Notes under the pieces: generated by a model
The model's database searches: none
What the model saw: only the letters and a program-made list of their open reading frames with translations
Told to the model about the DNA's origin: nothing
Made by a program: the position numbers and the translations under genes
Shown here: in pieces, positions 8,769 through 12,917 of the stretch
How the letters are laid out: the number at the start of each line of letters is the position of its first letter
How positions within the stretch are numbered: the stretch's first letter is position 1
Origin: Shigella phage SSG23
Direction: 5' to 3' (one strand)
DNA: 64,000 nucleotides
Sequence record: PQ351811

Positions 8769-9701
8769 TCAAATCATGAGGATGCCGAACGGAGGATCTA
8801 ATAATTCTAGTTCTTGTCGCAATTTCTCAATATCGGCGCGTGCTTCTTCAATGATTCGGATACCATCCACGGTAACACCGCCGGGCAATTGCAGACCTTG
8901 ATGTTTAGCCATGATGGACCCCCACACTTCCTTAGTGAAAGCGGTTGCCATGTCTTTAACCCAGCGGTTATTATATGCGCCCTGCCTGTTCTCGCTGATC
9001 GGTCCCATGCCAGCAACAATCCCGCTTAAACCAGCAGTAGGATTATCATAAACGGCGCTAATCCCGCCAGCGGTAGAACACCCTCCTGCATGAGCATAAC
9101 CAGCAACCGCCCCCATCATGTCCGGTACATCAACATAACTTTTAACATACAATTCAACAACAATGAGATCTCCTTCTCGGAAGTTTCCTGTGATCTTAAG
9201 TTGTCCATTTGCGCTATTATACCAATAATCTGGCAGCGGATTGAGCATATTTTGCATAGTGGCTCGATAGCTCATAAGCTGTTCGAAATATCCCAGATCA
9301 CCGCCCATTGCATTTGGACCATAAAATTTACTACAGCCAGATCCTAAACCGCCATTTACACCCGCTAAACCCAACAGAAAGTCGGTAAACCACGGATAAA
9401 CGGCAGTACCATCCATCGTAGCCGCGCTACCTACGTTTGTTCGAATTATTTTAGTTACTGCGAATACTCCAGAATCGCTTAAATCAAATACCCCGTGTTG
9501 TGCTTGCTCTGCACTAACACGAAATACTTTATATCCTTTATTCACACCATCGAAATGATATTCCCCATAGAGTTCTAGTGCTCTCTGAATACAATCGTAA
9601 ATCTGGTCTTCTGTGACTTCGACGTTAATCACTGGTGCGCCTAAACGACGCAGAATAGCGTCTTTTAATTCTCTTGGGTTATTGGTTACATATCCTGACA
9701 T
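8769..9701 (-). CDS. gp13: neck protein gp13
   Basis: 310 aa (T4 gp13 309 aa) at gp13 position. Confidence 0.7.
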
Positions 9702-9710
9702 AATATCACC

Positions 9711-9745
9711 TATAAACGAAAAAGGGGCTTAACGCCCCTTTAATT
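9711..9745 (-). terminator. rho-independent terminator after fibritin gene
   Basis: Minus-strand RNA hairpin AAAGGGGCGTTAAGCCCCTTT followed by TTTCGTTTAT. Confidence 0.6.
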
Positions 9746-9747
9746 TC

Positions 9748-11517
9748 TTATACCGGAGAAATCCCAAAGAGGAACTCTTTAATTTGTACTGGCTGTGCTA
9801 CTGCTTCGGCAGATACACCCTTAATACGGATGTTAATCTGATCGCCCTTTTCAATATTTAGGAAAGCACTGGTAGAATAGCTGATCAATTCGTCTGTGCC
9901 GTAATGACCATTTTTCGCTTCATATACCATCTGTCCATTTTTGAAAATCGCAACAATGAATGTTGCATTATGTTGAGCGTGTACAGCGCAACGGAATACA
10001 CAACGGAATAAACCCTTGTCCTGAACGGTAACAACAGATTCACTTTTCACCATTTGACGCACATTAACTTCCGACGCCATGTCGTTAAGCGGAATCGGTT
10101 TATAAACATCCTGTTCGTTAAGTTCAACCGTAATGTCTGCGGTATTTTTAAATGCTCCAGCAGCATATGCAACTTGCACCCATTCGCCGTGCTTACGCAG
10201 ATAATGAAAACCGTCATCAGGAACATCATCTACTTTGTTTTCGTTAGATGTTTGTAACTCTTTGACGATTTTAATCACGCCTTTCTGAGTAAATGGATCA
10301 TCTGAACCATCATCACCATAGATATCACTTGACAGTTTAATAACGCCAGCGGTCAAACCTGATTCGCGATCACCTACAAGCTGTTCCATGTCCTGTACGC
10401 TTGCTTCTAACCGACCCTGAGTGTTTTCTACAACTTTAAGACGTCCGGCTAGAGTATGTCGATCTCTGTCAGTACCAATCTCATTGGAAAGTCGAGCAAC
10501 TTCACCGCGCAAACCGTCAGCACCGCTTACGCCAACAACCTGTTTAAGATCTAAAAATTCTCGCTCTGTGTTGGTTAATCGATAATCAAGGCTTCCCGCC
10601 GATTGAGGCGTTCCGATCTTGTTTTCAACTGCCAGAAGACGAGGACGAATACCAGAATCTACACCATTAACATCATCGTTTAGACGTTCATAATTAGTGC
10701 CTAGCGTAGTGACTTTAGTCCCGATATCAGGGATTGAATCAAACAAAATTGCTTTCTTGACTTCTAGAACTTCATTTGATAAGTTAGCAATGTTTCTTGC
10801 GTTGGTGCGGAGACGAACATACACATTTTCTTGTGTTGCAAGAGATGTGTCGCCGATCTCGCTGCGCATTTTGTTAACTTGTTTTGTTAACTCGCCTACG
10901 TCAGAATCTTGCCAGTCGTTTTCTAGCTGAACGATTCGGCGACCGTGGTCATTTAATGCTGCGGTATTCTGGATAACTCGGTATTTGATGCCGGAACCGG
11001 AATTACCCGCATCAGGAGAACCATTAATATTGAAGTTAGGATAAGAACCCATTTCTTGTTTGATGAAAGAAATATCATCATAGATTGTTCTTGTGCTCGG
11101 ATCGGCAGCGGGGCGATCACCAATCTTGATGTTAAGTTCTGATACAGCGTCTACCGTTGTTTGCAGCGTTTTTGCTGTTTCTCCTAAGTTCTCTTCGACG
11201 GATTCAACTTTTGCGACAGTCTGGTTAACCACATCAATGATACTTCCGTCAGAAATTGCCCCTAAAGTTGTTTTAATATCGTTAACCGCCGTTACAACTT
11301 CGTTAACTTTAGCGACGGTTGATTTTGCGTTTTCGTTTACGCGTGCAACGTTTTCTTGAATTGCAACCGGGGCGCGGTTAAGCGTCCCGTCATTGCCAGT
11401 CTGTGTCGTTGCTGCGCTTAAACATTCGCCATTCTTGATCCAATTAATCCGGTGCTGTCCTTCGCCTGGTACACCGTCAACATTTGGGATCTCGTGGATG
11501 TTTAATTGTTCAATCAT
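9748..11517 (-). CDS. wac: fibritin (wac) with extra C-terminal domain after a foldon-like motif
   Basis: 589 aa between gp13 and gp12; coiled-coil-like body; internal DGFHYLRKHGEWVQV resembles T4 foldon; about 130 further residues follow. Confidence 0.65.
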   Translation of the reverse strand: MIEQLNIHEIPNVDGVPGEGQHRINWIKNGECLSAATTQTGNDGTLNRAPVAIQENVARVNENAKSTVAKVNEVVTAVNDIKTTLGAISDGSIIDVVNQTVAKVESVEENLGETAKTLQTTVDAVSELNIKIGDRPAADPSTRTIYDDISFIKQEMGSYPNFNINGSPDAGNSGSGIKYRVIQNTAALNDHGRRIVQLENDWQDSDVGELTKQVNKMRSEIGDTSLATQENVYVRLRTNARNIANLSNEVLEVKKAILFDSIPDIGTKVTTLGTNYERLNDDVNGVDSGIRPRLLAVENKIGTPQSAGSLDYRLTNTEREFLDLKQVVGVSGADGLRGEVARLSNEIGTDRDRHTLAGRLKVVENTQGRLEASVQDMEQLVGDRESGLTAGVIKLSSDIYGDDGSDDPFTQKGVIKIVKELQTSNENKVDDVPDDGFHYLRKHGEWVQVAYAAGAFKNTADITVELNEQDVYKPIPLNDMASEVNVRQMVKSESVVTVQDKGLFRCVFRCAVHAQHNATFIVAIFKNGQMVYEAKNGHYGTDELISYSTSAFLNIEKGDQINIRIKGVSAEAVAQPVQIKEFLFGISPV

Positions 11518-12917
11518 TAGCGCACCCTTATGATATAGTTTAATGCCAGACTCTTGACGCGAGTCTCGTTAGCCGTTCTTACGGATCTTCCTGAGTCAAA
11601 GTTAACAGTAGAACCCCAATCATCCCCCTTACCGTTTTTATAGTTCGTGCTCCATTGACCGCGCTGTGCAGTAAATGCGCCACCATACCAACCGCGCCAG
11701 CGGTCAGCTACAGGGAATTTACCAGTAATTCTCTGCATTGCGTCTTCTTGATAAGAACCAAATCGACGGCCTGGATCAAAGTTTCGTCCATGATCGCAAC
11801 CACGAGCAACTAAACCGCGCATATCAGGAAGGTTAAAATTGTTACCTGACCCACCAAAGGTATAACCAATCGCAGAAAATAATTGCGGATATTGATTTTT
11901 ATTCAGTGAACGACCATTACAGATCAGAAAGTCGCCTCGATCAGCATTGAATCCAGAAAGGATAATACCACCAATTGGCATTGCGTGACTCGCTAATTCA
12001 TTTTTAGTAACAAACTGGTTGCCGTCTGAGTTAGAACCTTTATAGACGTTTCCGCTTACCGTACCGCCAGTGCTAGGAAGAACCTTAGCATTTGCTGATA
12101 GTGCAGCGTTAGCCTCACTTCCTACGGTGTCTCGTAGTTTAACAATACCGTATTGAGACGTTGTTGCCTTAGTGCTTGCAAACTTCTTAGCAGAAACAAC
12201 TACAGTATCATCAGAACCAGCATTCATCTGTGACTGGTTGGCGATCTTAACAGTACCCGCCTGATTCTCATTGGCGCGAGCATTTGCAAATGCATAAGGG
12301 CTAATTGCAAAACCTTCTCGAATCTGGCCTTGTAAAACTTGCGCATTGGTTGCTAACTGAACTAAACCTTGTGCGCTTTCGGTTGCTGTGTTTTGCTCTG
12401 GAATTAATCCCGGTACAATCTGTGCAATGGCAGTGTGCATCTTTTTCGGTGTTACTGCCATTGTGTCATCACTGCCAATCTTTGCTGCCTCAAGAGAACA
12501 TATCTTAATAGTCCCCTGAACGCTCTCTGACGCCTTTTTAGTGGTGAAGTAATGGTTTAGTGTGTCTGGACCGATTGCCATGTTCTCGTTGCTCTCTTGC
12601 AGCGATTCTTCCATCGTGGCAAATCGGGTGATGCCCTTTACTTCTTTTGTAGCATCTGGGCGTGACATTTTAACAGCCAGTGTTTTTGGAGTCACGATCT
12701 TATTATCTACAGTACCGTCGTTTACTTCTTCCTGAGTTGCGATTGCAGCGATCCCGGCTGTATCTTCCGTAGCGTCCGGTAATCCATTTACAGCAAAGCC
12801 GTTAATAGCGGCTAAAGCCGCTTGTACGTTGGTAATGCTTTGAGGCCAATCATTTACAGGGTTAAACTTGACGTATTGAGCATCGTCTTTTACGTGGTTA
12901 ATAGTATTGTTTGCCAT
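11517..12917 (-). CDS. gp12: short tail fiber protein gp12
   Basis: 466 aa; C-terminal tail-collar-like motif YPQLFSAIGYTFGGSGNNFNLPDMRGLVARG; position between gp11 and wac. Confidence 0.75.
   Translation of the reverse strand: MANNTINHVKDDAQYVKFNPVNDWPQSITNVQAALAAINGFAVNGLPDATEDTAGIAAIATQEEVNDGTVDNKIVTPKTLAVKMSRPDATKEVKGITRFATMEESLQESNENMAIGPDTLNHYFTTKKASESVQGTIKICSLEAAKIGSDDTMAVTPKKMHTAIAQIVPGLIPEQNTATESAQGLVQLATNAQVLQGQIREGFAISPYAFANARANENQAGTVKIANQSQMNAGSDDTVVVSAKKFASTKATTSQYGIVKLRDTVGSEANAALSANAKVLPSTGGTVSGNVYKGSNSDGNQFVTKNELASHAMPIGGIILSGFNADRGDFLICNGRSLNKNQYPQLFSAIGYTFGGSGNNFNLPDMRGLVARGCDHGRNFDPGRRFGSYQEDAMQRITGKFPVADRWRGWYGGAFTAQRGQWSTNYKNGKGDDWGSTVNFDSGRSVRTANETRVKSLALNYIIRVR

Follow-up and report, generated by a model that had tools for sequence, protein, structure and literature searches.

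The gene wac of Shigella phage SSG23, located at positions 9748–11517 of the 64,000-nucleotide stretch analysed here (sequence record PQ351811; hereafter the window), encodes an RB49-type fibritin, a neck whisker protein in which a coiled-coil stalk and a retained foldon are followed by a C-terminal knob with a predicted C1q/TNF-like jelly-roll fold. In the reading that we favour, and to which we assign a probability of roughly 0.6, this knob would serve as a trimerization module and would also form the docking surface at the distal end of the whiskers. A preliminary description of this DNA had proposed a fibritin with an additional domain beyond the foldon, which it regarded as a potential ligand-binding head; the domain is borne out by our analysis, while we consider the proposed role unlikely. 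The gene and the segments of its product are as follows:

9748–11517, minus strand: wac, RB49-type fibritin, 589 amino acids plus stop codon (open reading frame list, PHROG match, DNA identity, annotation of phage SFHK24)
11368–11517, minus strand: N-terminal neck-attachment domain, about residues 1–50 (alignment to the N-terminal domain of T4 fibritin)
10258–11367, minus strand: segmented coiled-coil shaft, about residues 51–420 (collinear with the T4 shaft)
10165–10257, minus strand: linker and foldon, residues 421–451, with the foldon core NKVDDVPDDGFHYLRKHGEWVQVAY (Fibritin_C match, T4 foldon alignment, hairpin in the model)
9751–10164, minus strand: C-terminal knob, residues 452–589, predicted C1q/TNF/BclA-like jelly roll (AlphaFold2 model, fold comparison)

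In the list of open reading frames (ORFs), positions 9748–11517 form a single frame of 589 codons on the minus strand, and the plus-strand reading is riddled with stops. Residues 1–581 of the product match the PHROG family phrog_1056, ‘fibritin neck whisker’ (E 2e-185). The DNA of the gene is 100% identical to that of Shigella phage SFHK24, whose record annotates it as fibritin, and 96.4% identical across the whole gene to that of RB49, where it has the same length (589 amino acids) and the same locus. Identities of 96–98% extend to RB49, Phi1, GEC-3S and about 25 other Krischvirus phages, and a second group of 27 Krischvirus records shows 60–95%. These identities indicate that the window comes from an RB49-like member of the Straboviridae, a T4-type coliphage of the genus Krischvirus. 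Both in the window and in the SFHK24 record, the gene order is gp10-gp11-gp12-wac-gp13-gp14-gp15; this is the classical T4 arrangement, with fibritin between gp12 and gp13. This order, the ORF list and the T4 protein (PDB 2bsg_A) agree with the earlier claim of a 589-residue protein in the fibritin position, compared with 487 residues in T4, and all the strings quoted in the preliminary description (DGFHYLRKHGEWVQV, GLFRCVFRCAVH and LNIEKGDQINIRIKG) occur in the translation.

Most of the protein follows the plan of T4 fibritin. Residues 6–424 are collinear with residues 5–429 of the T4 protein (PDB 2bsg_A, 487 amino acids; E 1.6e-49), and residues 7–84 align with its N-terminal domain (PDB 1ox3, 2ibl and 2bsg; the N-terminal constructs 1ox3 and 2ibl reach E values of about 1e-15), which in T4 binds domain III of gp13 (PMC12929629). 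Across 14 homologues, 25 of the first 50 positions are invariant. The shaft, which is about 25–30 residues shorter than that of T4 in this alignment, appears in the full-length model as 14 helices split by short loops (residues 51–423). Its score in the predicted local distance difference test (pLDDT) is 55, a low value that is to be expected when a trimeric coiled coil is modelled as a monomer and that makes the model uninformative for the shaft. A coiled coil of 25–30 residues spans about 4 nm, which is about the height of a C1q/TNF head, so that the tip of the whisker may lie about as far from the neck as it does in T4.

The foldon motif DGFHYLRKHGEWVQV occupies residues 435–449 and is followed by a further 140 residues; the preliminary description was thus right about the extension and slightly low in its estimate of about 130 residues. 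Pfam Fibritin_C matches residues 368–451 (98.7 bits with a cut-off of 21; E 2.1e-28), and the match extends to position 92 of the 93 in the profile. The T4 foldon aligns as a separate second segment to residues 420–449, where 13 of 27 positions are identical, including the P-DG-Y-RK-GEWV core. We further built an alignment of the protein and 13 metagenomic and genomic homologues, ranging from 96% down to 30% identity; D435, Y439 and R441 are invariant in these 14 sequences and W446 is nearly so. When a profile of the C-terminal 170 residues was compared with the PDB, only foldon-tagged chains were matched, always at profile positions 9–30, and the predicted model places a β-hairpin (HYLRK/EWVQV) at this site. 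The resemblance to the T4 foldon is therefore far beyond chance, and the foldon is real, retained and essentially intact. The motif is kept in related fibritins down to 30% identity, and the suspicion that it might not be conserved thus fails.

Directly after the foldon hairpin, whose last strand runs into the 138-residue knob, AlphaFold2 predicts a β-sandwich of about ten strands. The model of residues 420–589, which was computed with a 12-sequence alignment, has a mean pLDDT of 88 and a predicted template modelling (TM) score of 0.82, with a pLDDT of 87–97 in each 10-residue block of the knob, and an independent full-length run reproduces the strand pattern with values of 80–93. In these models, the knob is a compact jelly-roll β-sandwich of about 130 residues with TNF/C1q topology. 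The β-rich, C1q/TNF-like jelly roll that had been suspected is therefore what the modelling and the structural neighbours support, and the alternative of a disordered or coiled-coil C-terminus did not hold up. The structural neighbours, with the figures listed for each of them, comprise the C1q domain of Caprin-2 (15.1), EDA-A1 (15.0), BclA (14.8), ExsFA (14.4), the cyanophage A4 tail fibre (14.4), C1QL1 (14.3), TWEAK (14.2), cerebellin (14.2), complement C1q (14.0), a domain of the A-1(L) short tail fibre (13.8), collagen VIII NC1 (13.7), PRD1 P5 (13.0), the receptor-binding domain of TM4 gp23 (12.4), the receptor-binding protein (RBP) of lactococcal phage 1358 (11.2) and the Sf6 needle knob (8.9). 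Likewise, a Foldseek search of predicted viral structures returned 465 matches at E ≤0.001, some of which are named as C1q-domain, collagen-repeat or phage tail fibre proteins.

Profile comparisons point weakly in the same direction. For the 170-residue C-terminal fragment, BclA_C (PF18573) scores 22.0 bits and C1q (PF00386) 17.5 bits, where the cut-offs are 38 and 23.7, respectively. Sub-threshold matches recur among the homologues, with BclA_C found in 9 of 12 (best E 2.9e-7) and C1q in 5 of 12, and one metagenomic relative carries a precomputed weak match to BclA_C. Because both scores stay below the gathering thresholds, we do not file the knob in either Pfam family; its relationship to C1q/TNF proteins is one at the level of fold or superfamily.

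This architecture has been described before. Fibritins fall into about eight types by their C-terminal modules, of which ‘RB49’ is one (Letarov & Krisch 2013, PMC3797505), and homologues in the phages examined, RB49 included, are reported to be trimeric (PMC3797505). The foldon alone suffices for trimer folding only in T4- and JS98-type fibritins, whereas RB49 and other types need expanded C-terminal domain sequences for folding and trimerization (PMC3797505, citing Letarov et al. 2005 and Latypov et al. 2007). A foldon followed by an expanded C-terminus has thus been known for the RB49 group since 2005. Full-text literature searches combining fibritin with C1q, TNF-like or Krischvirus returned no paper that assigns a fold to this module, with Letarov et al. 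2005 lying outside the searchable text; that paper (J Bacteriol 187:1055) may already state both the retention of the foldon and the fold. The assignment of the C1q/TNF fold and the explicit reading of a retained foldon with an appended knob may therefore be small additions.

In T4, the virion carries twelve fibritin trimers (PMC12929629), and fibritin touches the long tail fibre close to the knee with its C-terminal part, which aids fibre attachment and holds the fibres retracted in the ‘up’ position (PMC3797505). By analogy, we envisage that the N-terminal domain of the SSG23 protein plugs into the gp13 neck ring and is followed by the segmented trimeric coiled coil, the foldon and the knob, and that three copies of the knob form a compact trimer of the C1q/TNF type atop the foldon, at the distal tip of each collar fibre or whisker. 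That the knob is trimeric we infer from its position directly after a trimeric stalk and foldon, and from the characterized members of the fold.

C1q/TNF heads are classic obligate trimers, and gC1q/NC1 heads have an established role in trimerization and chain registration on collagen stalks. Because this role matches the published dependence of RB49 fibritin on its expanded C-terminus, knob and foldon together would constitute the C-terminal nucleus of trimerization and registration, from which the coiled coil would zip up. Since the knob caps the foldon, it would also become the distal surface of collar fibres and whiskers and could inherit the part that the foldon end plays in T4, namely the contact with the long tail fibre near the knee, its attachment and its retraction. 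The docking step in particular is drawn from T4.

How the knob varies among related phages bears on these proposals. According to Nei-Gojobori estimates for seven Krischvirus wac genes, the ratio of nonsynonymous to synonymous substitution rates (dN/dS) is 0.05 in the N-terminal domain, the most conserved segment, 0.09 in the shaft, 0.07 in the foldon and 0.14 in the knob. The knob is thus under purifying selection, and by domain-wise identity it is conserved about as well as the shaft. RB49-type and JSE-type knobs differ at 18 of the 80 positions in strands and at 17 of the 58 outside them; in the six phages compared, the stretch NGHYGTDELISYSTSAFLNIEKGD is almost invariant, with three substitutions, and the final 13 C-terminal residues do not vary at all. 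None of the compared knob alleles shows hypervariable loops like those of gp38 or gp37.

At the DNA level, wac is an island of divergence within Krischvirus. RB49-type and JSE-type alleles share 60–85% identity in shaft and knob, while the adjoining downstream gene gp13 is 96–100% identical between the same phages, and gp34, gp35 and most of gp36 are 93–100% identical in RB49, JSE, ECD7 and SFHK24. In the comparison of the wac/gp13 and long-tail-fibre loci, only the 3' end of gp36 and gp37 are as variable as wac. We also asked whether knob alleles are inherited together with alleles of the fibre knee; as gp34–gp36 offer no dimorphism to correlate with, this comparison is uninformative about docking and speaks against co-evolution. 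The alleles themselves have been shuffled. The wac gene of ECD7 is a natural recombinant, RB49-like (99–100%) to about codon 473 and JSE-like (99–100%) from about codon 481 to the stop, with a breakpoint corresponding to about 10075–10100 in the window, and that of JK32 combines a shaft allele of its own with a JSE-like distal half of the knob. A breakpoint at the foldon/knob junction of ECD7 was considered and dropped, since inspection at the residue level places it 20–30 residues inside the knob; we therefore do not claim a clean swapping of domains. In sum, the diversity of the knob is old, reshuffled by recombination and purified by selection, and it does not track changes in the fibre knee.

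This last point counts against the docking role that we favour, as do several others. wac, including the knob, is deeply diverged within Krischvirus, its RB49-type and JSE-type alleles differing by 20–28% in DNA, while gp13 and gp34–gp36 are nearly identical, so that the variation of the knob is clearly not driven by co-evolution with the fibre knee. The pattern of this variation rather resembles that of environment-exposed genes such as gp12 and gp37, and receptor- or glycan-binding heads are numerous among the structural neighbours of the knob. Furthermore, Efimov et al. suspect that the pre-adsorption conformation of the fibres of RB49-like phages might not be the same as in T4. On the other side of the balance, the strong conservation of part of the knob and of gp34–gp36 is compatible with a distal role at the long tail fibres.

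Variation of this kind and neighbours of this kind would fit a knob that is a lectin-like or receptor-binding head, as the preliminary description proposed, with the twelve collar fibres and whiskers acting as auxiliary adhesins. Such a head might attach reversibly to lipopolysaccharide (LPS), O-antigen, capsule or some other glycan and so gather virions at the cell ahead of the long tail fibres. In favour of it, a study that predicted receptors for 255 coliphages found k-mers predictive of the LPS core sugar target in gp12 and in the adjacent fibritin and baseplate wedge genes (bioRxiv 10.64898/2026.04.02.716166), but linkage to gp12, the next gene upstream, can account for the signal in wac. 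The compared knobs lack hypervariable loops, their substitutions are spread evenly over strands and loops at a dN/dS of 0.14, and just two or three alleles account for the knobs of 57 sequenced Krischvirus phages from many different hosts. Host-range mutants of RB49 carried changes in gp38 only and none in wac, and host range tracked differences in gp38. The missing loops, the dN/dS value and the gp38 mutations are indirect evidence against a primary role of the knob in receptor binding, and a likeness in fold to binding domains does not demonstrate binding. We therefore consider it unlikely that the Krischvirus neck carries twelve extra trimeric adhesins that tether the phage to LPS, envelope glycans, mucus or biofilm matrix. 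If it did, the dimorphism of RB49-type and JSE-type wac would reflect adaptation to different surface structures instead of drift, and the neck whiskers of T4-type phages would be a second organ of host or environment recognition in addition to their handling of fibres.

Quite unlikely, in our view, is a purely structural knob, that is, a bulkier substitute for the foldon that provides folding, trimerization and stability and has no binding partner, with the whiskers working through other parts or being reduced. The reported need of RB49 fibritin for its expanded C-terminus (PMC3797505) would fit such a module, as would the slightly weaker constraint on the knob (dN/dS 0.14, compared with 0.05–0.09 elsewhere in the protein). 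The obligate trimerization of C1q/TNF heads would fit it as well. However, one would not expect a mere cap to preserve a long, surface-rich stretch nearly unaltered between alleles that are otherwise about 25% apart, and a second trimerizer seems redundant next to a conserved foldon unless it adds something; moreover, the distal end is the functional end in T4 (PMC3797505). Finally, we give practically no credence to the notion that the extension is not a domain at all, but a tail produced by frameshift or read-through, a disordered stretch or further coiled coil. It is refuted by a 589-residue frame that is intact in 57 phage genomes, by purifying selection, by the confidently predicted β-sandwich and by relatives at about 20–30% identity.

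The knob matters because fibritin controls the attachment and extension of the long tail fibres in T4-type phages, and hence infectivity, and because its distal tip decides how. It offers a concrete structural hypothesis for a module that has been treated in the literature as an ‘unrelated C-terminal moiety’. Krischvirus phages are also present in phage therapy collections, where a second surface-exposed binding module would be relevant to the engineering of host range. The practical gain is small, given that the gene is already annotated, its architecture has been described and phage fibres often bear TNF-like knobs.

By sequence, the knob is confined to a single lineage of T4-like phages, made up of Krischvirus and a few relatives, in which it is inherited together with the structural gene module. 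With the knob as query, tblastn found it only in 57 Krischvirus records and always within wac; its protein identity to RB49 is 95.7%, which groups it with the RB49-type C-terminal modules. A diverged metagenomic version (P0020) reached two Serratia phage records besides Krischvirus. In one of these, Serratia phage 4S, the 594-residue fibritin likewise ends in a foldon and a knob (27% identity across 163 residues, E 2e-16), and the best match in BFVD, equal to it in length (594 residues), may be identical with it. In metagenomes, relatives at identities of 53%, 41% and 30% share the synteny from gp10 to gp15 (gp10-gp11-gp12-wac-gp13-gp14-gp15). An exhaustive phmmer search with the knob against 1.84 billion representative proteins yielded nothing credible outside fibritins: its four matches are two fibritins, a 2951-residue repeat protein and a low-complexity repeat ORF, the last two of which look spurious. 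Word-indexed searches, run with the C-terminal fragment and with a profile of the knob alone, recovered just 110-residue fragments and also missed full-length proteins that were already known; the fragment search gave, in addition, one weak and short match to a 220-residue Fibritin_C protein (P0003). With P0021, the most divergent relative, tblastn found nothing across the phage collection.

Several of these relatives have peculiarities of their own. The 110-residue proteins (P0001 and P0002, calls from ENA metagenomes, one of them on a 50-kb contig) comprise only the last 110 residues of the knob, at 95% and 79% identity; a frameshift, a break in the assembly or a wrongly called start in these contigs is the probable cause. 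A stand-alone 159-residue protein of the T4-like Klebsiella phage KPV15 (BFVD A0A1J0MHA5) matches the foldon-plus-knob model with TM scores of 0.71/0.76 at 23% identity and may be a free-standing or split version of this module. Two metagenomic fibritins, P0022 (1006 residues) and P0023 (736 residues), have serial foldon-like motifs (DGxxYxRKxGxW) followed by different C-terminal domains; that of P0023 looks β-rich, and an hhalign comparison with the knob profile detected no relationship. On the contig that carries P0021, a 72-residue ORF without a Pfam match (L002, 5773–5991) lies between a 402-residue gp12-like gene and wac. On that carrying P0019, the gene for the large terminase appears to be split into two ORFs (L004, 10819–13770), the first of which (569 residues) has a Terminase_6N match and weak Phage_endo_I and TnsA-like N matches, and the second matches to Terminase_6N and 6C; an inserted endonuclease or an intein-like element may be responsible.

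In the window, wac is preceded on the same strand by gp10 (600 residues), gp11 (214 residues) and gp12 (466 residues) and followed by gp13, gp14 and gp15. The immediate surroundings are as follows:

11517–12917, minus strand: gp12, short tail fibre, upstream neighbour (ORF list; SFHK24 and RB49 annotation)
9721–9741, minus strand: terminator-like GC-rich hairpin, AAAGGGGCGTTAAGCCCCTTT with a T-rich tail (consensus match only)
8769–9701, minus strand: gp13, neck protein, downstream neighbour (ORF list; annotation)

The stop codon of gp12 and the start codon of wac share one base, position 11517, which suggests translational coupling. The terminator-like hairpin falls within the 46 nucleotides that separate the wac stop from the start of gp13, and the annotation of phage G37-3 has a putative terminator at the equivalent site between wac and gp13. 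No match to the T4 late-promoter consensus TATAAATA was found near wac, and its count across the window is at chance level. In ECD7, KFS-EC and G37-3, a homing endonuclease gene (segC-like or of the group I intron type) lies between gp13 and gp14; in the window, RB49, JSE and JK32, gp14 stands immediately 3' of gp13, with no intervening endonuclease gene.

Compared with known systems, the closest is gpwac of RB49 itself, which belongs to the same family and type, has the same length and locus, and shows no structural difference; the window allele is of the RB49 type, differs from RB49 by 4% in DNA and is identical to that of SFHK24. With T4 fibritin (PDB 2bsg, 1aa0 and 1rfo), the protein shares the N-terminal neck-binding domain, the segmented coiled coil, the foldon and the position between gp12 and gp13. 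However, the T4 protein stops a few residues past the foldon, whereas the SSG23 protein continues into the 138-residue jelly-roll knob. Outside fibritins, the knob resembles gC1q domains (C1q, Caprin-2, cerebellin, collagen VIII NC1), TNF ligands (EDA, TWEAK, APRIL) and the Bacillus proteins BclA and ExsFA in fold, with just 7–21% identity, and its stalk is a coiled coil with a foldon in place of the collagen stalks of C1q-type heads. Other phages carry TNF-like tips of the same fold (PRD1 P5, the Sf6/HS1 needle knob, the 1358 RBP head, A4, A-1(L) and TM4 gp23), although phmmer, knob-profile and hhalign searches detected no sequence relationship between these and the knob. In all of them, as predicted here, the domain sits at the distal end of a trimeric virion fibre. 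Yet the knobs of PRD1, Sf6, 1358, A4, A-1(L) and TM4 are mounted on host-facing tail or vertex fibres, and several are proven receptor binders, whereas the knob described here belongs to the neck fibres, whose known role in T4 is to handle the long tail fibres of the phage itself.

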